The notes: generated from the sequence alone by a model not told the origin. A stretch of DNA of 64,000 nucleotides from Clostridiales bacterium (GCA_036644995.1 JAVXOZ010000002.1:50128-114127); one strand, 5' to 3'. Positions 11,131 to 38,445 are shown, numbered from the stretch's first letter. Numbers and translations: made by a program.

Positions 11131-11360
11131 ATCTGATTTCCTTATACTTCTATATATAGTTACTTCTAATTATTATCTCACAAGTTGAAAAAAAAGGCAA
11201 TGTTTTAAAGCTATATAGTAGTGATAGATTGTGTCGAAACCCAAGAAATTGACTTGAAAAAAGATTTAATATGATTTTAGGCTGTTTTTAAGCATAAATA
11301 TATACTAAAATCACGGTTAAACCCCAAGAATAAATTTGCTTAGAGTTTTTTTTAAGCTCC

Positions 11361-11389
11361 TTGTTCTTAGAAGAAAAAATTGGTATAAT
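11361..11389 (+). promoter_or_regulatory. Sigma-A-type promoter (TTGTTC -17- TGgTATAAT, extended -10) for the radical-SAM/argA-like/argH unit
   Basis: TTGTTC at 11361-66, 17 nt spacer, TGGTATAAT at 11381-89. RBS GAGGAG and ATG 11416 follow. Confidence 0.5.
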
Positions 11390-11415
11390 AAAAAGATAAA
11401 CTGAGGAGATTTTAT

Positions 11416-12555
11416 ATGAAAATGGAAAAAGAGTTGGAACAGTATCTAACTGCATCTATGACCAAATTAGTTAAAGATGTGCTAAAATCAACCTTGAAAA
11501 ACCCCAAAGAAACGGCTTTTTTGATTAAGAGCACTAAAAATATGGAAATTATGCACCAACGGCGAAAAGATATGGGGGATCGGGGCAATAATATACCCGG
11601 GTTTTTAATTGCCAGCATTACCAATGCCTGTAATTTATTTTGCAGTGGCTGCTATGCCCGTGCCAATGGTATGTGCAATGATGATGAAGCTGAGGCACTT
11701 TTAACTGCTGAGGATTGGGAATCTATTTTTTCCCAAAGTGCCAAAGTGGGGATTGCCTTTATCCTTTTGGCAGGTGGCGAGCCTTTGCTGCGTAAAGATG
11801 TGATTAAAACCGCCGCAAAATTTAAAGAAATTGTTTTTCCTGTTTTTACCAACGGTACAATTTTAGATGATGATTATTTGCGGTTCTTTGATGAAAACCG
11901 CAATATGGTGCCGATTTTAAGCTTGGAAGGAAATCATAAAGAAACCGATGAACGCCGAGGTAAAGGTGTTTATCAACGGCTATACCATAGCATGAGCGGC
12001 TTGAAAACAAATAAAATATTATTTGCTGCTTCCCTTACGGTTACTACGGAAAATATTGATAAAATAACTGCCGTGGAGTTCATTGAGAATTTGCAAAACC
12101 ATGGTTGCCGTGGAGTTTTATTTATAGAATATGTAGCCGTTGACGGCAAAACCCAAACTTTGGAAATTGATGAAAAAGGCCGTGAAAAATTGGAAAAACG
12201 TCAAGAATCTCTGCGTAAAAAATTCCCCGCCATGGTGTTTATTTCTTTCCCCGGTGATGAAAAACAAATGGGGGGTTGTTTGGCAGCGGGGCGAGGTTTT
12301 TTTCATATCAGTCCCCAAGGCAATGCCGAGGCTTGCCCATTTTCTCCCTTTGCAGATTGTAATTTAAAAGAGGTTTCCCTGTTGGAAGCCTTAAAATCAC
12401 CTTTTTTTGATATGCTGCGGCAGAAGCATTTGGTGGGTGGTGAACATAGTGGCGGCTGTGCTCTGTTTCAAAGAGAAGCCGAGGTTAAGGAGTGTTTAAA
12501 GGTGGCAAAATTGAATAAAACGTTGGAGGTGGAGCATGATTTACAGAAAAGCTAA
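11416..12555 (+). CDS. Radical SAM enzyme with C-terminal SPASM/twitch-like Cys cluster; unknown substrate
   Basis: CNLFCSGCY (Cx3Cx2C) at residues ~72-79, GGEPLL, and a C-terminal GGCLAAGRGFFHISPQGNAEACPFSPFADC. A ~70 aa N-terminal extension precedes the cluster. The stop overlaps the next gene by 20 nt. Confidence 0.8.
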   Translation: MKMEKELEQYLTASMTKLVKDVLKSTLKNPKETAFLIKSTKNMEIMHQRRKDMGDRGNNIPGFLIASITNACNLFCSGCYARANGMCNDDEAEALLTAEDWESIFSQSAKVGIAFILLAGGEPLLRKDVIKTAAKFKEIVFPVFTNGTILDDDYLRFFDENRNMVPILSLEGNHKETDERRGKGVYQRLYHSMSGLKTNKILFAASLTVTTENIDKITAVEFIENLQNHGCRGVLFIEYVAVDGKTQTLEIDEKGREKLEKRQESLRKKFPAMVFISFPGDEKQMGGCLAAGRGFFHISPQGNAEACPFSPFADCNLKEVSLLEALKSPFFDMLRQKHLVGGEHSGGCALFQREAEVKECLKVAKLNKTLEVEHDLQKS

Positions 12556-13003
12556 AATAGATGATGTGGAACAGATTTATCAGCTTATTATGGATTATGC
12601 CAATGAAGGGCTGATGTTGGCAAGACCACGGCAAGGGATTTATGCAGGTATCCGTGAATATATTGTAGGGGAAAATTCCACAGGTGAGGTGGTTGCCATT
12701 GGTGCTTTGCGGATTTTGTGGAGCGATTTGGCGGAAATTTGCTCCTTAGCTGTGCGTGAGCCTTATTTGAAAAAAGGGATTGGCAAAAAAATAGTTGAAT
12801 TACTGGAAAATGAAGCCGAGGATTTACGGATTCCCCAAATTTTTGCTTTAACCTATCAACAAGGGTTCTTCTTGAAATGCGGCTTTAATTCCGTGGAACA
12901 CAGTGCCTTGCCCCAAAAAGTTTGGCGTGATTGCATAGATTGCCCTAAGTTTCCTGATTGTGATGAGAAGGCGGTATTAAAAAATACTTCCCATAATGGG
13001 TGA
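12536..13003 (+). CDS. argA: GNAT N-acetyltransferase, short-form N-acetylglutamate synthase (S-NAGS/ArgA-like)
   Basis: 155 aa. The block VVAIGALRILWSDLAEICSLAV...GIGKKIVELL...IFALTYQQGFF is colinear with my recollection of mycobacterial short ArgA (GALHVLWSDLGEI...GIG..IV..LL). Lies immediately upstream of argH. Confidence 0.6.
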   Translation: MIYRKAKIDDVEQIYQLIMDYANEGLMLARPRQGIYAGIREYIVGENSTGEVVAIGALRILWSDLAEICSLAVREPYLKKGIGKKIVELLENEAEDLRIPQIFALTYQQGFFLKCGFNSVEHSALPQKVWRDCIDCPKFPDCDEKAVLKNTSHNG

Positions 13004-13268
13004 TAGCAGGGAAACTCCCCAAACTGAGACCGCTTATGTATTATATATACACTGCACGTCCTCATTTTGGTGTGTTCCCCTGTTCTAACCCATTCTTGAA
13101 AGTATTTTTGTTGCCCATAGGAGATAGCAGGGAAACTTTTTTGAAAGTATTTGTAGTGCCCAAAGCATATAATAAGGAAACTTTTTTAGCAAGGTTAACT
13201 TGTTTTAAAAATTTCCATATAAAATTTAAGATGATTTATTGGACAAGTTGTAATAACGGAGGTTTGTG

Positions 13269-14669
13269 ATGAAATTATGGGGTGGCAGATTTGCCAAAAA
13301 TAACGATGCTTTAATGGAAGATTTTCATTCTTCCATCACTTTTGATAAAAGACTTTTCGAAGAAGATATTACCGGTTCTTTGGCACATAGTGCCATGTTG
13401 GCAAAACAGGGAATAATTTCCTCTGATGAAGGGGAATTAATCCGCAAGGGACTAAAAGAAATTTTAGCCGATATTGCCAATGGCAATGTGGAATTTGATG
13501 TTAAAGCAGAAGATATCCACATGAATGTGGAAACCATGCTCATAGCCAAAATTGGCGATGTGGGTAAAAAACTGCACACAGGCAGAAGCAGAAACGACCA
13601 AGTGGCTTTGGATATCCATTTATATTTAAAGCACGAAACCGATGGGGTGCTGGTGTTATTGCAATCTTTGGAAGAAACCATATTGGCAATGGCAGAACAG
13701 CACACTCACACTGTTATGCCGGGATATACACATTTGCAAAAGGCACAGCCCATTTCTTTTGCCCATCACTTAATGGCATATTTTGAAATGTTTTTAAGGG
13801 ATATGGGGAGATTGCAGGATAGTAAAAAACGTTTGGATGTAATGGTTTTAGGCTCAGGTGCTTTGGCAGGTACTGTTTTTCCTTTGGATAGAGAATTTGT
13901 AAAAGAACAGCTGGGCTTTGCTGAAATTTCTCAAAATTCCATGGATGGTGTTTCCGACCGTGATTTTGCCTTGGAATTTTTGGCGGCGGCTGCCATGATT
14001 ATGATGCACCTTTCCCGTTTTTCCGAAGAAATAATTCTTTGGAGCACAGGGGAATTTGCTTTTGTAACCATGGATGATGGTTACAGCACCGGTTCTTCCA
14101 TTATGCCCCAGAAAAAAAATCCCGATGCCGCAGAACTTGTCCGTGGGAAAACAGGGAGAGTTTACGGGGATTTAATGGCTTTACTTACGGTGATGAAGGG
14201 GATTCCCTTAGCCTACAACAAGGATATGCAGGAAGATAAAGAGGCTTTGTTTGATGCTGTGGATACGGTGAAAAAATCTCTGATGATTTTTAAGCCCATG
14301 ATAGCTACAATGAAAATTAATAAAGAGCGGATGAGAGCCGATGCCGAAGGTGGTTTTATCAATGCCACAGATGCTGCGGATTATTTGGCAGAGCACGGTG
14401 TACCCTTCCGTGAAGCCCATGGAGTGGTGGGTTCTTTGGTTTTATATTGCGAAAAAGTGGGCAAAGCCTTAGGCGAGCTTACCCTTGAGGAATGGCAAAA
14501 ATTTTCACCGGTTTTTAAAGAGGATATATACAAATTTGTAAAAATTGAAAACAGCTTAAGCCGCCGAGATATTCCCGGTGGCCCTGCACCTGTTCAATGC
14601 GGAAAAGCCATAGTAAATGCCAAGGAGCGTTTAGCATATATGGTAAATGAAAATAAAGGAGTTAAATAA
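13269..14669 (+). CDS. argH: Argininosuccinate lyase
   Basis: MKLWGGRF... fumarate-lyase signature GSSIMPQKKNPD. Start taken at ATG 13269 (RBS GGAGG 7 nt upstream) rather than the GTG at 13266. Confidence 0.97.
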   Translation: MKLWGGRFAKNNDALMEDFHSSITFDKRLFEEDITGSLAHSAMLAKQGIISSDEGELIRKGLKEILADIANGNVEFDVKAEDIHMNVETMLIAKIGDVGKKLHTGRSRNDQVALDIHLYLKHETDGVLVLLQSLEETILAMAEQHTHTVMPGYTHLQKAQPISFAHHLMAYFEMFLRDMGRLQDSKKRLDVMVLGSGALAGTVFPLDREFVKEQLGFAEISQNSMDGVSDRDFALEFLAAAAMIMMHLSRFSEEIILWSTGEFAFVTMDDGYSTGSSIMPQKKNPDAAELVRGKTGRVYGDLMALLTVMKGIPLAYNKDMQEDKEALFDAVDTVKKSLMIFKPMIATMKINKERMRADAEGGFINATDAADYLAEHGVPFREAHGVVGSLVLYCEKVGKALGELTLEEWQKFSPVFKEDIYKFVKIENSLSRRDIPGGPAPVQCGKAIVNAKERLAYMVNENKGVK

Positions 14670-15772
14670 TGGAAAAAGCAAAAGTATATTATACTAATTT
14701 TCGCACTACCAATACAGAAAATCAGCCCCAAAAATTAGCACGGCTGATAAAAACAGCGGGTATGGAAACCATGGATTTTAAAAACAAATTTACCGCTATT
14801 AAAATACACTTTGGAGAATTGGGCAATTTAGCTTTTTTACGCCCTAATTATGCCAAGGTGGTGGCGGATATGGTTAAAGCAAACGGCGGCAAAGTATTTT
14901 TAACCGATAGCAATACCCTTTATGTGGGTAGCCGCAAAAACGCTTTGGATCATTTGGATACCGCTTATGAAAACGGTTACAGTCCTTTTTCCACAGGGTG
15001 CCATGTGATTATTGCCGATGGTTTGAAGGGTACAGATGAAATACTTGTGCCCATAGATGGGGAATATGTAAAAGAAGCAAAAATTGGCAGAGCCTTGATG
15101 GATGCGGATATAATTATCTCCCTTAACCACTTTAAAGGTCATGAATTCACAGGTTTTGGCGGTGCGTTAAAAAATATTGGCATGGGGGGTGGCTCCCGTG
15201 CGGGAAAAATGGAAATGCACAGCAATGGCAAACCCGTGGTGAAAGAGGAGCTTTGCACAGGCTGTAAAACCTGTTTAAAAAATTGTGCCAACGATGGCGT
15301 GGTTATAGAAAATAAAAAAGCTAAAATTATTGAAGAAAAATGTTTGGGCTGCGGCCGTTGTATTGGGGTTTGTCCTGAGGATGCCATGGTAGCCAATCTT
15401 AATGAAGCTAACGATATTTTGAATTGTAAAATTGCGGAATATACCAAAGCGATTATTAAAGATAAGCCCCATTTTCATATATCTTTGGTGGTGGATGTTT
15501 CACCATTTTGCGATTGCCATTCAGAAAATGATGTTGCCATTGTTCCCGATGTGGGTATGTTTGCCTCCTTTGACCCTGTGGCATTGGATATGGCTTGTGC
15601 CCATGCTGTAAATGCTCAACCTGCTATTTTGGAAAGCCGCTTGGGTGAAATGAAACATGAAAGTGATGACCACTTCCATAATAATCACCCCAGCACAGAT
15701 TGGCGGGCTTGTTTAAAGCATGGTGAAAAAATTGGCATTGGCAGCCAAAAATATGAATTGATTGAGATATAA
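14669..15772 (+). CDS. DUF362-domain protein with 2x[4Fe-4S] ferredoxin insert
   Basis: CTGCKTCLKNC and CLGCGRCIGVCP motifs inside a DUF362 fold; start overlaps the argH stop. Confidence 0.75.
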   Translation: MEKAKVYYTNFRTTNTENQPQKLARLIKTAGMETMDFKNKFTAIKIHFGELGNLAFLRPNYAKVVADMVKANGGKVFLTDSNTLYVGSRKNALDHLDTAYENGYSPFSTGCHVIIADGLKGTDEILVPIDGEYVKEAKIGRALMDADIIISLNHFKGHEFTGFGGALKNIGMGGGSRAGKMEMHSNGKPVVKEELCTGCKTCLKNCANDGVVIENKKAKIIEEKCLGCGRCIGVCPEDAMVANLNEANDILNCKIAEYTKAIIKDKPHFHISLVVDVSPFCDCHSENDVAIVPDVGMFASFDPVALDMACAHAVNAQPAILESRLGEMKHESDDHFHNNHPSTDWRACLKHGEKIGIGSQKYELIEI

Positions 15773-15828: not shown

Positions 15829-17007
15829 ATGGAATATAGAAAAAATCCCAAAAACGGTGATAAGCTTTCTGTTTTAGGTTATGGCTGTATGCGATATACC
15901 AAAAAAGGCGGCAGTATCGACCAAGAAAAAGCAGAAAAAGAGATGCTCTACGCCTTGGAGCACGGGGTAAATTATTTTGATACCGCCTATGTTTACCGTG
16001 GCTGTGAAGTGGCATTGGGGAAGTTTTTAGCCAAAGGACATCGTAAAGATGTTTATATAGCCACAAAATTACCCCATTATCAGCTTAAAACCTTAGATGA
16101 TGCCCAGCGGATTTTTCAAGAGGAATTAAGCCGCTTGCAAACCGACTATATCGACTATTATTTAATCCATATGCTCACCGATGTGGCTGCTTGGCGCCGT
16201 TTGGAAAAAATGGGATTGGGAGATTGGCTGGAGCAAAAGGTTAAAAACGGAGAAATCCGCAATGTGGGTTTTTCTTATCACGGGGGAACCAAAGGCTTTA
16301 TTGATTTAATAGATGCTCACCCTTGGGATTTTGTGCAAATACAGTTTAATTATATGGACGAACATAGTCAAGCAGGGCTTAAAGGCTTGAAATATGCGGC
16401 GGCTCAAGATATCCCTGTGATAATAATGGAGCCTTTGCGTGGTGGGCGTTTAACTGTGGATTTGCCCCCAAAAGCCAAAGATATATTTGCCCAAGCCCAG
16501 CCGCCCAAAACAGCGGCGGAGTGGGGTTTGCGGTGGATTTGGAACCACCCCGAAGTTACCGTGGTGCTATCGGGAATGAACGATATTTCCCAAGTTACGG
16601 AAAATGTGGCAGTGGCAGATGTTGCTTTAGCTAATTCTTTAAGTGATGAGGAATTGGCTATTTTTCCAAGGGTGAAAGAGGCTATTGATAAATCCGTAAA
16701 AATACCCTGTACAGGGTGCGGTTACTGTATGCCCTGCCCTAAGGCCGTGGATATACCCAATGCTTTTCGTAGCTATAATGTGAGTTATAGCGATGGCTGG
16801 TATCACGGTATTCGGGAGTATTATATGGCTACCACTATGCGTACTAATCCTACCAATGCCGGTCTTTGTGTGCAATGTGGCAAATGTAAAAAACATTGCC
16901 CCCAAAGTATTAATGTGCCCGAAGAAATTTTGAAAGTACAAAAGAGAATGGAAAATCCCCTATATAAATTAGTGGCTAAGTTTTCTAAATATTTTGTGAA
17001 ATTTTGA
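15829..17007 (+). CDS. Aldo/keto reductase fused to a C-terminal 4Fe-4S ferredoxin domain
   Basis: N-terminal AKR fold (GYGCMRY, catalytic Y/K) plus C-terminal CTGCGYCMPCP and CVQCGKCKKHCP. Confidence 0.85.
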   Translation: MEYRKNPKNGDKLSVLGYGCMRYTKKGGSIDQEKAEKEMLYALEHGVNYFDTAYVYRGCEVALGKFLAKGHRKDVYIATKLPHYQLKTLDDAQRIFQEELSRLQTDYIDYYLIHMLTDVAAWRRLEKMGLGDWLEQKVKNGEIRNVGFSYHGGTKGFIDLIDAHPWDFVQIQFNYMDEHSQAGLKGLKYAAAQDIPVIIMEPLRGGRLTVDLPPKAKDIFAQAQPPKTAAEWGLRWIWNHPEVTVVLSGMNDISQVTENVAVADVALANSLSDEELAIFPRVKEAIDKSVKIPCTGCGYCMPCPKAVDIPNAFRSYNVSYSDGWYHGIREYYMATTMRTNPTNAGLCVQCGKCKKHCPQSINVPEEILKVQKRMENPLYKLVAKFSKYFVKF

Positions 17008-17057
17008 CAAATTTTCCATAATGGCGGATATGGAGAAAACTTAAAAAATTTACGGGT

Positions 17058-17181
17058 AGGCTGTTGATAAAGTCTGATATTCGGTAAAATCCCTTCCCAT
17101 CCACTGCCTATGCACATATAGGTACACTGCACAGTGGCTGTTCAGGGAGTTTTACCGAATCTAAGGCTTTCTTAACAGCCT
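17058..17181 (+). repeat. Interspersed ~124 bp imperfect-palindromic repeat, copy A
   Basis: AGGCTGTTGATAAAGTCTGATATTCGGTAAAATCCC...GGGAGTTTTACCGAATCTAAGGCTTTCTTAACAGCCT; terminal inverted repeats with a palindromic core. Followed by GACAATCTG. Bracketed by the 17 bp direct repeat TTAAAAAATTTACGGGT (17041-57 and 17194-210). Confidence 0.9.
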
Positions 17182-17310
17182 GACAATCTGCACTTAAAAA
17201 ATTTACGGGTTTATCTGCATTAAAGCACATTGCATCTCCATATTTTTAGGTTTTAGTGAGTTTAAGCTTTCTTAAATCTTTGGAATTTATGGATTATTGC
17301 TAAATTAAAT

Positions 17311-17490: not shown

Positions 17491-18354
17491 TTACCATTTA
17501 TTAAACCAGTCTACGGTGAGGTCAAAAGCATCTTTACGGGCTTTGGCACAGAGCTCGGGGAATTTGCGTTCGTTTTTTTGGGTTCGTGCCCAAGCTGTTA
17601 CCGGGGTTAAATAGTGGCTTGCTATATCAAAATTAACGTGTTTATATTCATAGGGGAAATTATTGGCTTTTAATCTATCCACAATGTGTTTTGCTCCGTA
17701 TTCTGAAGGCCACATATCATCTGTGGTGGTGGATAAAACCAAAACGTTGCCGTGAATTTTTTCCACGGGAATAATGGCTTCTTCGGGGATGGGGTGGGTA
17801 AAAAGCTCATCATAGCGATAGAGCATTAAAAGTTTACGCCCTTTCCATACACGCTTTATAAAATTCCAGCCTGCACAGCCCTTCATGTGAAAATAGGGCA
17901 ATGGACGGTTTTTATAGCTCCAAGATGAGGTTCTTATAGGGAATTTATACCATGTTACCCCTTCATAAATATAGCAACTGGGTGTAACCCCCACTACGCA
18001 GGTAATATCAGGGAAAAGTGTGGCGGAGGTTAAGGTTAGTTCTGTGCCCTTTGACCAGCCGTACATTCCTATTTTTTTTATTGTGCCATTTTGGTATTTT
18101 TTTAGCCAATTAACGGCATTTTCAATGTATTCTATGGGAATATTGGAAAGTTTATAGCTTAAACCCTTAACGTACCAATAGCCCACTGCCAAAGCAAAAA
18201 AACCATTTTCTGCCAATAATTTTGCTATGGTTTTGGCATTTTCAATACCGCCATCGCTGCCTGTAACAACTATTATGGCTTTATTTGTTTTGGTTTTTGG
18301 GGTAAACAAGGTACCCATAAATCCCTCTTTTTTTAAATCTATATCAAGACTCAT
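17491..18354 (-). CDS. Alpha/beta hydrolase, BAAT/acyl-CoA thioesterase C-terminal-domain family
   Basis: GWSKG nucleophile elbow and dienelactone-hydrolase-like fold. True start is ATG 18354 (MSLDIDL..., RBS GGGAGGT). The track's upstream extension to 18519 reads through repeat copy B. Confidence 0.8.
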   Translation of the reverse strand: MSLDIDLKKEGFMGTLFTPKTKTNKAIIVVTGSDGGIENAKTIAKLLAENGFFALAVGYWYVKGLSYKLSNIPIEYIENAVNWLKKYQNGTIKKIGMYGWSKGTELTLTSATLFPDITCVVGVTPSCYIYEGVTWYKFPIRTSSWSYKNRPLPYFHMKGCAGWNFIKRVWKGRKLLMLYRYDELFTHPIPEEAIIPVEKIHGNVLVLSTTTDDMWPSEYGAKHIVDRLKANNFPYEYKHVNFDIASHYLTPVTAWARTQKNERKFPELCAKARKDAFDLTVDWFNKW

Positions 18355-18459
18355 GAAAACTTTACCTCCCAAAAATAGTAGCTTTAATAAAAAGTCAAAA
18401 ATATTATAACATATTTTGTTTAGTAAGGATAGATAAGACTTTTTAAAATAGAAATCTTT

Positions 18460-18573
18460 AGGCTGTTTATAAAGTCTGATATTCGGTAAAATCCCTTCCC
18501 ACCCACTGCTTATGTACATCTAAGTATACTGCATAGCCGCTGCTCAGGGAGTTTTACCGAATCTAAGGCTTTC
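18460..18573 (+). repeat. Interspersed palindromic repeat, copy B
   Basis: AGGCTGTTTATAAAGTCTGATATTCGGTAAAATCCCTTCCCACCCACTGCTTATGTACATCTAAGTATACTGCATAGCCGCTGCTCAGGGAGTTTTACCGAATCTAAGGCTTTCTTAACAGCCT, with the right-hand extension ATCTTGCCAAAAAACTATGTTTTT. Confidence 0.9.
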
Positions 18574-18668
18574 TTAACAGCCTTACATCTTGCCAAAAAA
18601 CTATGTTTTTCAAAAATCTTTTTAATCACTCATTATTGGCTTGGGTATTTGGTAAAAGCCAAAGGAAT

Positions 18669-18731
18669 ATTCAGTGTTCTATATCTAACATTCAGTGTTC
18701 TATATCTAACATTCAGTGTTCTATATCTCAA
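18669..18731. repeat. Tandem direct repeat, 21 bp x 3 (ATTCAGTGTTCTATATCTAAC)
   Basis: Two exact copies plus one variant copy in the spacer between repeat copy B and the end of arcC. Confidence 0.9.
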
Positions 18732-18904: not shown

Positions 18905-19849
18905 CTATTGGATAATGCGAGTGCCGGATTCCCCTAAAATTGCTGCGGGAGCTTTTTCTAAAGAGGCAATTACCGCCACTCTGTTCTTGCCGCTTTTGGC
19001 AAAATCTATGGCGGCTTCTACCTTGGGTAGCATACTGCCAGGGGCAAAATGACCTTGGGCTATGTATGCTTCAGCCTCGGCTACGGTTATTTCTTTTAGC
19101 TCTTTTTCATCGGGTTTGCCAAAATTTATGGATACTCTGTCCACCGCTGTTAGTATAAAAAAGTATTCCGCATCCACCAAGGCTCCAAGCTTTGCTCCGG
19201 CAAAGTCTTTATCTATAACTGCGGCTACGCCTTGGTAGTGGTCTATGCTTTCTTTAATCACCGGTATGCCACCGCCGCCACAGGCTATAACCACAAATTC
19301 GTGGTCTAAAAGATTTAAAATGGAATCTTTTTCCACTATATTTTGGGGCTTGGGTGATGGTACCATGCGGCGATAGCCACGCCCTGCATCTTCCTTAAAT
19401 ACCATATGTGGGTATTTTTTCATTAAATCTTCGGCTTGGCTTTGGGTGTAATAAGCCCCAATGGGCTTTTGGGGGTTTTCAAAGGCAATGTCGTTTTTAT
19501 CCACTTCCACTTGGGTTACCACTGTGGCAACGTGCCAAGGCATATTTTGATTCCGCAGCTCCGCTAACAAGGCTTTTTGCAGGTGATAGCCTATGTAGCC
19601 TTGACTCATGGCGGCGCATTCCGCCAGTTCCATAGGTGGGATTTTTTCGGAATTTTCGCTGCCGTAATCAAAGGCATTTTTAATAACCCCAACTTGAGGG
19701 CCGTTGCCGTGGGTAAGTACTATTTCATAACCTTGGGCAATTAAGCCCACCAATGCCGGAGCGGCTATTTTTAATTTTTCCTGCTGTTCTTTGCCATCGT
19801 TGCCCAAGGCATTGCCACCTAAGGCAATTACAATTCTTGGTTCTTTCAT
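18905..19849 (-). CDS. arcC: Carbamate kinase
   Basis: MKEPRIVIALGGNALG... amino-acid-kinase fold. Start ATG 19849 with RBS TAAGGAGAAA; the track's longer ORF to 19957 extends into repeat copy C. Confidence 0.9.
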   Translation of the reverse strand: MKEPRIVIALGGNALGNDGKEQQEKLKIAAPALVGLIAQGYEIVLTHGNGPQVGVIKNAFDYGSENSEKIPPMELAECAAMSQGYIGYHLQKALLAELRNQNMPWHVATVVTQVEVDKNDIAFENPQKPIGAYYTQSQAEDLMKKYPHMVFKEDAGRGYRRMVPSPKPQNIVEKDSILNLLDHEFVVIACGGGGIPVIKESIDHYQGVAAVIDKDFAGAKLGALVDAEYFFILTAVDRVSINFGKPDEKELKEITVAEAEAYIAQGHFAPGSMLPKVEAAIDFAKSGKNRVAVIASLEKAPAAILGESGTRIIQ

Positions 19850-19916
19850 GTTTCTCCTTAATGGTCTGAAAATTTCCCTTAGAGCAATATCCTTCAGATT
19901 GATGAAAATTGCACTT

Positions 19917-20039
19917 AGGCTGTGGATAAAGTTTGCTATTGGGCAAAATCCCTTCATCGTGACTGCTTATGTACATCTAAGTACATAAGCAGACGCTGCT
20001 CGGGGAGTTTTACCGAATCTAAGGCTTTCTTATCAGCCT
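19917..20039 (+). repeat. Interspersed palindromic repeat, copy C (inside the agmatine deiminase operon)
   Basis: AGGCTGTGGATAAAGTTTGCTATTGGGCAAAATCCC...TGCTTATGTACATCTAAGTACATAAGCAG...GGGGAGTTTTACCGAATCTAAGGCTTTCTTATCAGCCT. Extension ...TTTTTGACAATCTG runs to 20075. Bracketed by the 20 bp direct repeat AGATTGATGAAAATTGCACT (19896-915 and 20076-095). Confidence 0.9.
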
Positions 20040-20133
20040 AATATCTTGGCAAAAAACTATGTTTTTGACAATCTGAGATTGATGAAAATTGCACTAACGG
20101 CTTTTAAATCTGTTGATAGTAATTGGTGTTATT

Positions 20134-21225
20134 TTATGGTCTGGGAATTTGCTGGGTAATGCAGTGGATATTGCCGCCGCCCAAGAGAATTTCTCTGGCA
20201 TATATCCCCACAATTTCACGGTTGGGGAAGCATTTTTTTAAGGTTTCTGCGGCTTTTTCGTCGTTGGGGTCTTTAAATTTGGGATAAATAACAGCATTGT
20301 TGCAAATGTAAAAATTTACATAAGATGCCGCTAAGCGATCTCCTTCAACTCTGGGGAGTGTGCCGTTTACTGCATCTACACCTTGACTTTCTTCTTCGGT
20401 GATGAGGATGGGTTTGGGTAGGAGCATTTTGTGCACGTTTAATTTTCTGCCTTTGGCATCGGTGGAATTTTCCAAAACCTTTAAGCAGTTGGCGGAAATT
20501 TCATATTGAGGGTCGTTTTTATCCTCTGTCCAAGCTAAAATAACTTCACCCGGAGCGGCATAGGAAAAAATATTGTCCACATGGCCATTGGTTTCATCAT
20601 TGTAGATGCCGTTTTTAAGCCAGATGATTTTTTCCAGTCCCAAGTATTCTTTAAGTGTGTTTTCAATTTCTTCTTTGGACATATGGGGATTTCTGCCTTG
20701 ACTTAAAAGGCATTCCTCCGTGGTAATTAAGGTGCCTTCACCGTCTGTGTGGATGCTGCCGCCTTCTAAAATAAATTCATCTAAAGGGTAGTAATTTAGC
20801 CGCTCCGCTTCGCAAACTTTTTGTGCCAAGGCATCATCTTTATCCCAAGGAAAATATAGTCCGTCCACTAAGCCGCCCCAAGCATTAAAACGCCAATCTA
20901 CACCACGGGTTTCTTTGCCGTTTACCACACAGGTAGGGCCGCAATCACGTACCCAAGCATCGTCATTGGCAATTTCTAAAACTCTGACGTTATAGGGGAG
21001 CATTCCACGGGCATTGGCATATTGATCGGAATTTACCGCCACTGTAACTTCTTCAAATTTGCTGATTGCCGTTGCTACCTCTGTGAATACTTTTTGGGCG
21101 GGTTTGCCACCTAAACGCCAGTTATCTGTGCGTTGGGGCCAGATGATATAAGTGCTTTGGTGGGGTTCAAATTCCCCGGGCATACGAAAACCGTCTGCTT
21201 TGGGGCTTGTTTCAAATGCTCTCAT
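20134..21225 (-). CDS. aguA: Agmatine deiminase
   Basis: 363 aa; porphyromonas-type peptidylarginine deiminase fold; WVRDCGP and a C-terminal [13 protein letters not shown] catalytic Cys motif. Confidence 0.9.
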
Positions 21226-22599
21226 TTATTTATCTCCTTTTTCAAGTTTTTTTACGCTTTGGGCGGCTATTATTTCACCGATGACAACAGCCAAAACCGT
21301 GCCTGCTAAAATCGGAATTTTTAAGCCCAGCTCCTCGGGGTCTAAGCTTAAGGGCACTGCACTTAAAACCGTGGCAATGATGAGTAAACCAAAGGGTACC
21401 CATGTCATTAAGGATAGCTTTACTTTGCCGCCGCTGATTTTAAAGGGTCTGTGGATATCCGGCTCGGTTTTGCGGAGCTTTAAAAATGCCGGGAAAATTA
21501 AAATATAGGAAATTAAAAGGGTAATCATATTTAAGGAAAAGAAGCTCCAAAATAAATCTTCACTGGGGATTAACGGCGCAGCTAAAACCATAACACTGGC
21601 TATTACCCCATTCATGATATTGGCACCCAAAGGCATTTTGTTCTTTTTATTTTCCGAGGCAAAAACCTTGGGCATACTTTTATCTTGGGCGGCATATTGT
21701 GCCACATAGTTTACACCCAAAGACCAAGAAATTGGGTTGGCAATAATGGTGTAAAGAAATACCAAACCAAAAAGCAGCAGTAAAATTCCTGAGGTTTGCC
21801 CTGTTAGCATCATAAAGCTTTCAATTAAGCCGTTGGATGTGGTTAAATTCTCCACAGGGATGGCTACGCTGATGCCAAATGCTGTTAATATATAAAAACC
21901 TGCAATGAGGCAACCGCCAATTATTATGGCTTTTGGTATGTCCTTGGCAGGGTTTTTCATATCACCTGCAAAGGTAGTTACCACCTCAAAGCCCATGAAA
22001 TTAAAGAGGATAACGGCGATGAATGAAAGGCTCATAATATCAAAGGATGGTAACATGGATTGTACGGTAAATTCATTGGCTACACCTTTGGTTAATGCCA
22101 CGTAGATACCTAATCCACCCAAAAGCAGCATAATACCTGCTTTGAAAAAAGCGGCGATGTTTAAAATCCATTTACTTTCGGAAACCGGGTAAAAGCTTAC
22201 ACCTACCACCAGCCAAATATATAGTAGCTGTATGGCTAAAATCCAAAATATGGGGATATCCCAACCGGTAATTTGCAGTAAAATATCGGTGAAGAGCACT
22301 GCCAAAGAACCCATCCACAGGGGAAAGTTAATATAATAATACCAAGCTACTCTGGAGCCCCATTTGTGACCAAAGGCTCTTTTTACCCAATCGTAAATTC
22401 CCCCTTCATCTTCATAGGTGGTGCCCAATTCTGCGGATATTAAGCCATAAGGCAGAAAAAAGCCGATGAGGAGCACCAGCCACCAGAAAAATTGAGCGTT
22501 GCCTATTACCGCAGCAGGAGCCGCACTCTCCACCACCAAAACAATGCAAACTGCGGCTAATACTGCATCAAATAGGCGAAATTCTTTCTTTTTGGACAT
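21226..22599 (-). CDS. aguD: APC-family amino acid permease, putative agmatine:putrescine antiporter
   Basis: 457 aa, 12-13 TM APC fold; sits between ptcA and aguA. Confidence 0.75.
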   Translation of the reverse strand: MSKKKEFRLFDAVLAAVCIVLVVESAAPAAVIGNAQFFWWLVLLIGFFLPYGLISAELGTTYEDEGGIYDWVKRAFGHKWGSRVAWYYYINFPLWMGSLAVLFTDILLQITGWDIPIFWILAIQLLYIWLVVGVSFYPVSESKWILNIAAFFKAGIMLLLGGLGIYVALTKGVANEFTVQSMLPSFDIMSLSFIAVILFNFMGFEVVTTFAGDMKNPAKDIPKAIIIGGCLIAGFYILTAFGISVAIPVENLTTSNGLIESFMMLTGQTSGILLLLFGLVFLYTIIANPISWSLGVNYVAQYAAQDKSMPKVFASENKKNKMPLGANIMNGVIASVMVLAAPLIPSEDLFWSFFSLNMITLLISYILIFPAFLKLRKTEPDIHRPFKISGGKVKLSLMTWVPFGLLIIATVLSAVPLSLDPEELGLKIPILAGTVLAVVIGEIIAAQSVKKLEKGDK

Positions 22600-22611
22600 T
22601 CAAAAGCCCCC

Positions 22612-23622
22612 TTAGAATATTTCTGCCAATAAGGCGTCAATTTTATGTTTTGCGGTGTGAATGGCATATTCCGCAGGGTTGGCAACGCCCAAAAGATATA
22701 CAAGAATTGCCCGCATTGCGGTTAAGCGGTTTTCTGCTTGGTCAAAGGCAATGGAATGGGCACCATCCAAGGCTTCATCTGTAATTTCTTCCCCACGGGA
22801 GGCAGGCAGGCAGTGGAGCAATTTTACTGTGGGTTTGGCTTTTTTCAGCATATCCTCGGTAACTTGGAATTTTGGCATGAAGATGTTTAAGCGTTCTTCC
22901 TTGGATAATTCCGCATTGTAAAGCCCATACCAAACATCGGTGTATATGAAATCTGCACCTTCCAGTGCGGTATCTGCATTATCCGAAAGGGTAAAAGACC
23001 CACCGGAAATTTTGCAGTTTTCTTTGGCAATTTCTTGAAATTCATTATTTAATTGGTGGGTATTAGGGCCAAACTGGGTGAAGTGCATACCCATTTTAGT
23101 GGTAATCATTGCGGTGGAAGCACAAACCTGGGTGGCATCACCCACAAATACTATTTTTAAATCGTTAAACCGTGCATTGGCAGGTTTGTGCTCAAAAATT
23201 GTGGTGATATCCCCAATTTCTTGGGTGGGATGGTTGTAATCGGACATGGCATTTATCACAGGGATGGTGGCGTGTTGTGCTAAACCTGCCACTGTTTTAT
23301 GCTGATCTACCCTTGCCATGATGATATCCACCAACCGAGAGAGGACACGGGCGGTATCCTCCATGGTTTCGTGGCCCCCTAATTGGATTTGCCCCGGTGC
23401 CAGATATTGGGCATGGCCCCCTAATTGAGTCATTGCTGTTTCAAAGGAAACCCTGGTGCGTGTGGAGCTTTGCTCAAAAACCATGCCCAAAGTTTTGTTT
23501 GCCAAAAGTGGCGGATAGTAACCATCTTTTATGGATTTTTTTAAACCTACACCTAAATGAATCATTTTTAAAATGTCCTGCTTGGTGTAATCTTTTGTGG
23601 TGACTAAATCTTTTTGTTTCAT
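22612..23622 (-). CDS. ptcA: Putrescine carbamoyltransferase (ornithine carbamoyltransferase family)
   Basis: STRTRVSFE carbamoyl-phosphate motif, HPTQ and HCLPA motifs. Start ATG 23622 (MKQKDL..., RBS GGAGG); the track ORF to 23727 is an upstream extension. Context with aguD-aguA-arcC favours PTC over OTC. Confidence 0.65.
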
Positions 23623-23865
23623 AATAACCTCCAATTTCTTTTGGTTAATATACCCATAGAATTGTGGTTTATGTAAAAGAGAAGTGGGACTTTTTGACAA
23701 AAAATTAAAGCAAGAAAGACTTGCCAAGAAAAGTACTTTATGCTAAACTGTGTTTTGTAATGAGGCATACATGAAGTGTGCTCGATATAGTTTATAAATC
23801 CTTTTGATAGATAAACTTTGGTACCTATCTCGGAAAAGTTAAATATTGTATAAATATGTGAAGTA

Positions 23866-38074: not shown

Positions 38075-38445
38075 AGGCTTTGGATAAAGTCTGATATTCG
38101 GCAAAATCCCTTCATCGTGACCGCTTATGTACATTTAAGTACACTGCACGTCCCCGATTCCGTGAGTTTTGCCGAATCTAAGCCTTTCTTCAAAGCCTAT
38201 GATTAGGATAAAGTCTGATATTCGGCAAAATCCCTTCATCGTGACCGCTTATGTACATTTAAGTACACTGCACGTCCCCGATTCCGAGAGTTTTACCGAA
38301 TCTAAGCCTTTCTTCACAGCCTATGATTAGGATAAAGTCTGATATTCGGCAAAATCCCTTCTCAGCCACTGCTTATGTACATCTATGTACACTGCATAGC
38401 CGCTGCTCAGGGAGTTTTGCCGAATCTAAGCCTTTCTTAACAGTC
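38075..38445 (+). repeat. Three tandem copies (E1 38075-38198, E2 38205-38321, E3 38328-38445) of the interspersed palindromic repeat, immediately upstream of the rpoB promoter
   Basis: Each unit is ~120 bp (AGG(CTTTGG)ATAAAGTCTGATATTCGGCAAAATCCC...GAGTTTT(A/G)CCGAATCTAAGCCTTTCTT(C/A)A(A/C)AGCCT). Units are separated by ATGATT. The last is followed by GACAATCTGA. Confidence 0.9.

Follow-up and report, generated by a model that had tools for sequence, protein, structure and literature searches.

In Thermus, Deinococcus and Moritella, a short N-acetylglutamate synthase (S-NAGS) is encoded beside argH or fused to it (PMC1382215, PMC4490483). For the M. tuberculosis short NAGS, published work describes a very high glutamate Km and proposes partner proteins (PMC4490483, PMC1382215). 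We analysed a 64,000-nt stretch of DNA from a Clostridiales bacterium (GCA_036644995.1 JAVXOZ010000002.1:50128-114127; hereafter, the window), in which the genes for an S-NAGS-like acetyltransferase (GNAT) and for ArgH are preceded by a gene for a radical S-adenosylmethionine enzyme (rSAM). The window sequence matches metagenome-assembled genomes (MAGs) that carry the 'Clostridiales bacterium' label (GCA_036648935.1). The original prediction had suggested a dedicated link between rSAM and arginine biosynthesis: the enzyme might modify a metabolite of the pathway, make a cofactor, or belong to an unrelated but co-regulated function. We found that the rSAM-GNAT-argH arrangement is real but lineage-specific, being confined to one narrow syntenic clade. 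The evidence does not support an additional, radical SAM-dependent step in the arginine pathway, and the last of the three options offered fits best. Overall, we think it probable that the locus is a mosaic operon, in which an arginine module (S-NAGS and ArgH) shares a transcript with a radical SAM enzyme that is unrelated to it and redox-associated.

The GNAT-argH pair itself is a fresh instance of the already known placement of a short NAGS beside argH. The earlier view that such a neighbourhood is reasonable thus agrees with published precedent (PMC1382215, PMC4490483), and the pairing adds little to what is known of arginine biosynthesis. As in the argGH-(A) cluster of Thermus thermophilus, in Deinococcus and in the ArgH(A) of Moritella/Vibrionaceae (PMC1382215), argH has a single-domain ArgA-like GNAT as its immediate neighbour. 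However, the window has the GNAT before argH, which is the reverse of the known order, and has no argG. It also adds the rSAM gene on the 5' side, genes for Fe-S oxidoreductases on the 3' side, and a CxxCPKFPxC tail on the GNAT. The GNAT gene is found directly 5' of argH in the window and in the comparison loci L014, L017, L109 and L103; in Thermincola it stands alone, unlinked to argH, and in Dehalobacterium the two genes are 3.3 kb apart. The GNAT family is common in Bacillota, and many of its members occur in other gene contexts.

For comparison, 104 rSAM loci were collected, and a metagenome search yielded at least 592 confirmed stretches with the rSAM family. The order rSAM-GNAT-argH-AKR (aldo/keto reductase), divergent from tmk, is kept by two MAGs of the same species (L012 and L013) and by L014, L015 and L017. 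Two further sequences, P0004 and P0123, apparently from a single 20,262-nt contig, also have rSAM-GNAT-argH. The rSAM proteins of the relatives that keep the linkage (L014, L015, L017, P0004 and P0123) are 57-63% identical to that of the window, and all carriers of rSAM-GNAT-argH lie within one synteny, metG..yabA-PSP1-holB-tmk. Neither the GNAT nor argH was found within the 5-8 kb flanks of any of the 98 rSAM loci outside this clade (44-58% identity), a set that includes Acetobacterium bakii, Oscillospiraceae, Bacillota MAGs and three Methanocorpusculaceae archaea. Hence, the gene-neighbourhood comparison does not bear out a dedicated link between rSAM and arginine synthesis: linkage is not conserved beyond the narrow clade and is absent from those 98 loci, although rSAM did not turn out to be a member of a well-characterised family, its own family being uncharacterised. 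The GNAT genes that lie 5' of rSAM in L063, L072 and L080 are of other kinds, without orthology to the window GNAT (no tblastn match at 1e-6), and three cases in about 85 loci are at the chance level for so common a fold.

The most informative comparison comes from a pair of loci that lack rSAM. In L109 and L110 (GNAT 72% identical) the order is tmk <-> GNAT-argH-AKR, with rSAM missing and the promoter-like element the same as in the window. The synteny is also that of the window, with metG to tmk on one flank; the opposite flank has Mntp, DUF3786 and an Fe-dependent repressor. In this locus tblastn detected no rSAM remnant even at E <= 10. A comparison of tmk, holB, GNAT and argH by pairwise identity yields the topology (window,(L109,(L014,L017))). 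Because L109 nests closer to L014 and L017 than the window does, the simplest history would be a loss of rSAM from this slot in the L109 lineage, with the arginine module and the AKR staying in place. L103 and L104 (GNAT 66% identical), which represent a common lineage, likewise have argH directly 3' of the GNAT and no rSAM upstream; the GNAT sequence is indexed in 317 collection blocks.

The rSAM and GNAT genes are genuine: a 99%-identical protein is present at NCBI, and hundreds of homologues share 45-63% identity. Searches of the 379-aa rSAM protein against family models returned a generic radical SAM match (Pfam PF04055, 49.5 bits versus a cut-off of 29.5) and otherwise just Fer4_12, which is also generic; no cut-off of a curated family was reached. 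All 67 NCBIfam matches are far under their cut-offs, including the top one, PapB (72 bits versus 340), StsB (68 versus 625) and SkfB (54 versus 300). In an alignment of 33 homologues (mean column identity 60%), the cysteines of the CX3CX2C motif (C72/C76/C79, CNLFCSGC) are invariant, as are C87, C288, C307 and C348, with C231 nearly so; G120-G121-E122-P123 of GGEPLL is invariant too. The three motifs quoted in the original prediction (CNLFCSGC and GGEPLL of rSAM, GALRILWSDLAEI of the GNAT) are all found in the sequence. Its description of the C-terminal cysteines as a twitch/SPASM-like cluster stands for the twitch half. A C288-x13-G302-x4-C307 hairpin, the first half of the SPASM motif, is present; the full SPASM model is not reached (PF13186, 14.8 bits versus 21.5, C-terminal fragment only), and CX2CX5CX3C is not present in the protein. 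Because this second half is missing and the Pfam SPASM match is below threshold, the C-terminus is best classified from its sequence as twitch-like, with one predicted auxiliary cluster. The CX3CX2C cysteines would hold the SAM-cleaving [4Fe-4S] cluster, and the auxiliary cluster would be ligated by C288/C307/C348 plus C87 or C231. The AlphaFold2 (AF2) model (pLDDT 82) has a two-helix N-terminal extension (residues 1-58), an rSAM barrel and a C-terminal hairpin, with a beta-hairpin predicted at residues 303-316.

Among solved structures, SkfB (6efn) is the closest in fold (TM 0.60), followed by SuiB, CteB and anSME, and sequence and profile searches against the PDB likewise put SkfB first. The two share a partial TIM-barrel rSAM core and a truncated SPASM (twitch) domain with a CX9-15GX4C hairpin and one auxiliary cluster, which is predicted for the window protein. 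They differ in that identity is just about 23% at the TM given above, and the window offers no peptide-substrate context. Two features are the family's own, namely a helical extension of 58 residues at the N-terminus and an invariant C87 right after the CX3CX2C loop. BtrN and MoaA are further twitch-type radical SAM enzymes of similar architecture. The 120 best rSAM homologues are 355-394 aa long, all score above 427 bits, and none is fused to a GNAT; the cluster members bear no source name beyond 'radical SAM protein'. The family thus has hundreds of members and seven invariant cysteines, and is without a curated model or literature. An anti-phage role was considered and rejected, as PADLOC shows a generic rSAM-core similarity to pVip (52 bits) alone and nothing for the neighbours.

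At every rSAM locus, the three flanking genes on either side were clustered with no labels assigned beforehand. A MarR regulator is among them in 15 loci, where the best NCBIfam model is OhrR (NF052638, 153 bits, under the cut-off of 200) and the proteins carry an N-terminal one-Cys motif, QLCFPLYA. Glutathione peroxidase (GPx; PF00255, 126 bits) occurs in 14 loci, a small flavodoxin-like protein with weak Flavodoxin_3/5 matches in 8, and TetR regulators in 5. Smaller groups comprise TM1586-type and classical nitroreductases, flavodoxin_4, EFR1-type flavodoxin-ferredoxin fusions and MBL-rubredoxin fusions. MarR and/or GPx were found in 18 loci (L034, L037, L039, L041, L044, L050, L053, L058, L060, L061, L066, L068, L073, L077, L086, L089, L092 and L093), which fall into six groups at 75% rSAM identity, the largest with 13 loci. 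Their order varies (MarR-GPx-rSAM, GPx-MarR-rSAM, MarR-rSAM-GPx), and a nitroreductase or flavodoxin often joins the cluster. Of the rSAM loci that lie outside the clade, roughly one in three has at least one redox or stress neighbour of these kinds. No conserved small open reading frame (ORF), transporter or protease was seen near rSAM homologues in the neighbourhoods surveyed.

The OhrR-controlled response to organic hydroperoxides, of the Bacillus/Xanthomonas type, is the described system that these loci resemble most. In about 18 loci of the rSAM family the likeness consists in a one-Cys OhrR-like MarR and/or a thiol peroxidase. The differences are that the peroxidase is a homologue of glutathione peroxidase rather than Ohr, and that the window rSAM itself has neither a MarR nor a GPx gene beside it. 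To our knowledge, no OhrR regulon includes a radical SAM enzyme, and the literature searched contained nothing relevant on such an enzyme in an OhrR, MarR or GPx operon. These neighbourhoods suggest that the rSAM family belongs to an organic-peroxide stress regulon of anaerobes, and a redox-stress role would follow for rSAM; together, OhrR, GPx, flavodoxin and nitroreductase provide a testable starting hypothesis for the family. A bolder version, which we regard as possible though doubtful, is that the 379-aa protein represents a large unnamed twitch rSAM family of anaerobic Bacillota, passed to some methanogens, which would act in the response to organic peroxides and electrophiles under OhrR-like or TetR control beside GPx. 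Fed by flavodoxin or ferredoxin, it would carry out an undescribed radical repair or detoxification, and its fusion to the S-NAGS-argH operon would tie arginine synthesis in.

Three Methanocorpusculaceae MAGs (L003, L009 and L022) carry rSAM orthologues that are 53-54% identical, as close as most Bacillota copies, and have them beside a Na+/H+ exchanger-TrkA gene. Because the archaeal copies are as close as most of those from Bacillota, the comparison suggests horizontal transfer of rSAM between Clostridia and methanogens.

For the operon in the window, we propose that a single promoter beside the divergent tmk would drive rSAM, GNAT, argH, the DUF362 gene and the AKR gene. The short NAGS would form N-acetylglutamate from acetyl-CoA and glutamate, the first step of arginine synthesis, and ArgH splits argininosuccinate, the last. 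The rSAM would stand outside this pathway, as a member of a widespread, highly conserved and uncharacterised twitch-type family whose recurrent partners elsewhere are low-potential electron carriers and regulators of the response to peroxides and electrophiles. Within the clade it would have come to head the GNAT-argH-AKR operon as a passenger, sharing no substrate with the GNAT; from its position at the head it would be co-transcribed, and probably translationally coupled, with the GNAT. Several points weigh against this proposal. Relatives whose identity has fallen to about 60% still have the start/stop overlap of rSAM and GNAT, and this persistence could reflect selection for stoichiometric co-expression, and a moonlighting link of rSAM to arginine or glutamate chemistry in this clade is conceivable. 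The absence of rSAM in L109 concerns this slot, not the rest of the L109 genome. The redox-stress association is one of gene neighbourhood in about a third of loci, and at many others the setting of rSAM is unrelated: it follows FTHFS or an ABC transporter, or stands by itself.

The kept overlap is also what one could expect if rSAM and GNAT were truly coupled in function, either because the GNAT acetylates the rSAM product (a cofactor, or an amino acid related to glutamate or arginine) or because rSAM modifies the GNAT or ArgH. Overlapping frames with an internal Shine-Dalgarno (SD) sequence are conserved in the clade, the high glutamate Km and the proposed partners of the M. tuberculosis enzyme (PMC4490483, PMC1382215) would fit, and the invariant four-Cys motif of the GNAT and its weak similarity to the ArsN2 resistance acetyltransferase (41 bits) can be counted in the same direction. 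We nevertheless consider such coupling quite unlikely: this GNAT is near none of the 98 rSAM loci outside the clade, GNAT-argH occurs without rSAM, rSAM has gone from the slot in a nested lineage, fusions of the two were not found among the best 120 homologues, and GNAT family members occupy many other contexts in Bacillota. The locus is a clean case in which a start/stop overlap conserved throughout a clade mimics functional coupling, and a sister lineage without the upstream gene exposes the mimicry. A maturase of ribosomally synthesized and post-translationally modified peptides (RiPPs), crosslinking its substrate as SkfB, SuiB and CteB do, is suggested by the best NCBIfam and PDB similarities of rSAM, which are to maturases (PapB, StsB, SkfB, SuiB and CteB). 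However, its scores are 5-9 times under the family cut-offs, no PqqD/RRE domain was matched in rSAM even at E <= 10, the N-terminus is predicted to form two long helices, no plausible precursor peptide ORF was found upstream of the window rSAM, and the gene is solitary in many genomes. We reject this identity as highly improbable.

The 3' end of the operon offers a different partner. The AKR gene is the last of the conserved GNAT-argH-AKR block, with orthologues 63-67% identical 3' of argH in L014, L017 and L109. In three other lineages, L045 (2872-5154, 25-nt gap), L101 (842-3140) and L029 (5021-7074), whose rSAM proteins are just about 60% identical among themselves, rSAM has a more distant AKR orthologue (47-54% identity) as its direct neighbour; for a single-copy gene and about 85 loci, we estimate the chance expectation at about 0.06 such adjacencies. 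Moreover, all three non-arginine genes of the operon encode Fe-S proteins, and the other neighbours of the rSAM family are redox proteins. The rSAM and the Fe-S AKR, in the window also with the DUF362-ferredoxin protein, might then form a redox module for reductive detoxification or repair, with GNAT-argH embedded between them. Against this, L109 keeps GNAT-argH-AKR without rSAM, so the AKR needs no rSAM at this locus; the AKR is missing at most rSAM loci; the three adjacencies may trace to one ancestral event; and AKR-Fer4 paralogues are common in anaerobes (one, 27% identical, lies 5 kb away in L011). The idea that rSAM and AKR are an ancestral pair into which GNAT-argH was inserted is weakened by L109, and we keep the redox module as an alternative that is unlikely on balance; the mosaic operon remains the reading that we prefer. 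As a separate observation, the AKR gene in L029 looks frameshifted or truncated.

The original prediction that the GNAT resembles short-form ArgA is borne out. The protein passes NF005840 (PRK07757, named just 'N-acetyltransferase') with 195 bits versus a cut-off of 154. It is under the cut-off of NF005921, the Rv2747-type 'amino-acid N-acetyltransferase' equivalog (111.6 bits versus 180), and in NF008964, the model for the ArgH(A) fusion, it matches the C-terminal GNAT stretch (residues 466-610, 102 bits, below cut-off). Its top solved relative is the M. tuberculosis short NAGS Rv2747 (5yge, E 1.6e-19, residues 2-131), and the second is the NAT domain of N. gonorrhoeae NAGS (ngNAGS; E 2.8e-6). 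The family-invariant R30 aligns with ngNAGS R316 if the index count assumes a 20-residue tag on the 2r8v chain. By homology, the GNAT is a single-domain S-NAGS-like protein, at 155 aa within the 150-180 aa of this class, and would be expected to have NAGS activity; in neither PMC1382215 nor PMC4490483 did we find a measured activity for any NF005840 member. Like Rv2747 (5yge, 5yo2, 6add), it consists of a single GNAT domain with the LHVLWSDLGEI core. It differs in the sub-threshold NF005921 match, in genomic context, and in its C-terminus, because the alignment with Rv2747 stops at GNAT residue 131, before the Cys tail. Four cysteines (C115, C133, C136 and C142) are invariant in all 21 aligned family members ('...VWxxCxxCPKFPxC'), three of which (C133, C136 and C142) make up this CxxCPKFPxC tail. 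The tail may be a metal or redox site, and we found no published description of it for Bacillota S-NAGS-like GNATs.

The argH assignment is secure (TIGR00838, 648.8 bits versus a cut-off of 279.5, with both the Lyase_1 and ASL_C2 domains), and the protein is 80-82% identical to that of relatives. Its start is most likely ATG 13269, which has GGAGG 6 nt 5' and yields the 466 aa called in L012; the GTG at 13266, where a mechanical ORF search starts, is less likely. The 262 nt between GNAT and argH had been described as a leader. The spacer is there, but it is not a conserved leader: a 124-nt tandem repeat that begins in the final GNAT codons (CCCATAATGGGTGA...) occupies most of it. Copy number varies by strain, with 1.2 copies in the window, 2.2 in L012 (9575-9848) and at least 3 in L013 (8811-9387), where an assembly gap makes the count a lower bound. 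Within each unit, two 49-nt arms form an inverted repeat (in the window, 12980-13028 and 13061-13109), and the RNA fold of 12975-13270 reaches -75.4 kcal/mol (z = -3.5 versus shuffled sequence). Rfam matched nothing over the whole window, and the spacer matches no known riboswitch, T-box or leader. The repeat is not present in the related species L014, L017 and L109, and the GNAT-argH gap in relatives is 3-8 nt. By its absence there, we classify the repeat as a recent, species-specific insertion, which may affect read-through into argH.

An ORF check placed all three genes where the original prediction had them, and the 20-nt overlap of the 379-aa and 155-aa frames, with argH next, agrees down to the start and stop codons (Table 1). 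The overlap is 4 nt in L014 and 8 nt in L017; from this geometry, rSAM and GNAT are probably translationally coupled. On the opposite strand, upstream of rSAM, lie tmk, holB, a PSP1-domain gene and yabA. A putative promoter beside tmk would support co-transcription of the operon. A matching architecture (CTTGTTmT...TGTTATAAT) adjoins tmk in L014, L017 and also in L109, which lacks rSAM; the promoter-like element of L109/L110 reads TTGTTA, 17-18 nt, TGTTATAAT. A generic scan for sigma-70 promoters and terminators gave the same counts as shuffled sequence and did not list the operon promoter, since its -35 element is weak. With a consensus that may not fit this lineage, no ARG box (TGAATWWWWATTCA-like, <=2 mismatches) was found in 11131-11415 or 13004-13268; the whole window has 6 matches to this possibly ill-suited consensus versus a chance mean of 11.9. 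Further downstream, the DUF362 gene starts in an overlap with the argH stop. It lies between argH and AKR in this species only and is not there in L014, L017 or L109.

Table 1. Features of the rSAM-GNAT-argH locus in window coordinates
Feature	Position	Strand	Basis
Putative operon promoter: TTGTTC, 17-nt spacer, TGgTATAAT (extended -10)	11361..11389	+	read from sequence
SD GAGGAG of the rSAM gene, 3' of the promoter	11404-11409	+	read from sequence
Radical SAM gene, 379 aa	11416..12555	+	PF04055, 33-sequence alignment, AF2 model
rSAM-GNAT overlap junction: SD GGAGG 12525-12529, GNAT ATG 12536, rSAM TAA 12553-12555	12525..12555	+	sequence
GNAT, 155 aa, short N-acetylglutamate-synthase-like	12536..13003	+	NF005840, PDB 5yge match
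124-nt tandem repeat with internal inverted repeat	12990..13185	+	repeat analysis, RNA fold
argH, argininosuccinate lyase, 466 aa	13269..14669	+	TIGR00838, Lyase_1, ASL_C2
DUF362 protein with 2x[4Fe-4S] ferredoxin insert	14669..15772	+	PF04015 182 bits, Fer4 families
Aldo/keto reductase (AKR), C-terminal 4Fe-4S dicluster domain	15829..17007	+	PF00248 133 bits, Fer4_9/Fer4_17

Beyond the operon, two 129-nt repeats (91% identical), each with a 32-nt-arm palindrome, lie at 17057-17185 and 18459-18587, where they flank a gene for a BAAT_C/DLH-like hydrolase (17491-18519, minus strand). A third, partial copy is found at 38075-38106. These repeats look like a dispersed palindromic (REP/MITE-like) element. 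Three tandem 21-nt units (AAYATTCAGTGTTCTATATCT) occupy 18666-18728, between the hydrolase gene and a carbamate kinase-like gene. The latter belongs to a group on the minus strand (18905-23727) that comprises the carbamate kinase-like AA_kinase, agmatine deiminase (PAD_porph), an amino-acid permease and a carbamoyltransferase-like gene; the first two were assigned by Pfam via L012, and the permease and carbamoyltransferase were judged by eye. The group is an apparent agmatine deiminase pathway cluster, that is, arginine-related catabolism encoded near the argH operon but divergent from it.

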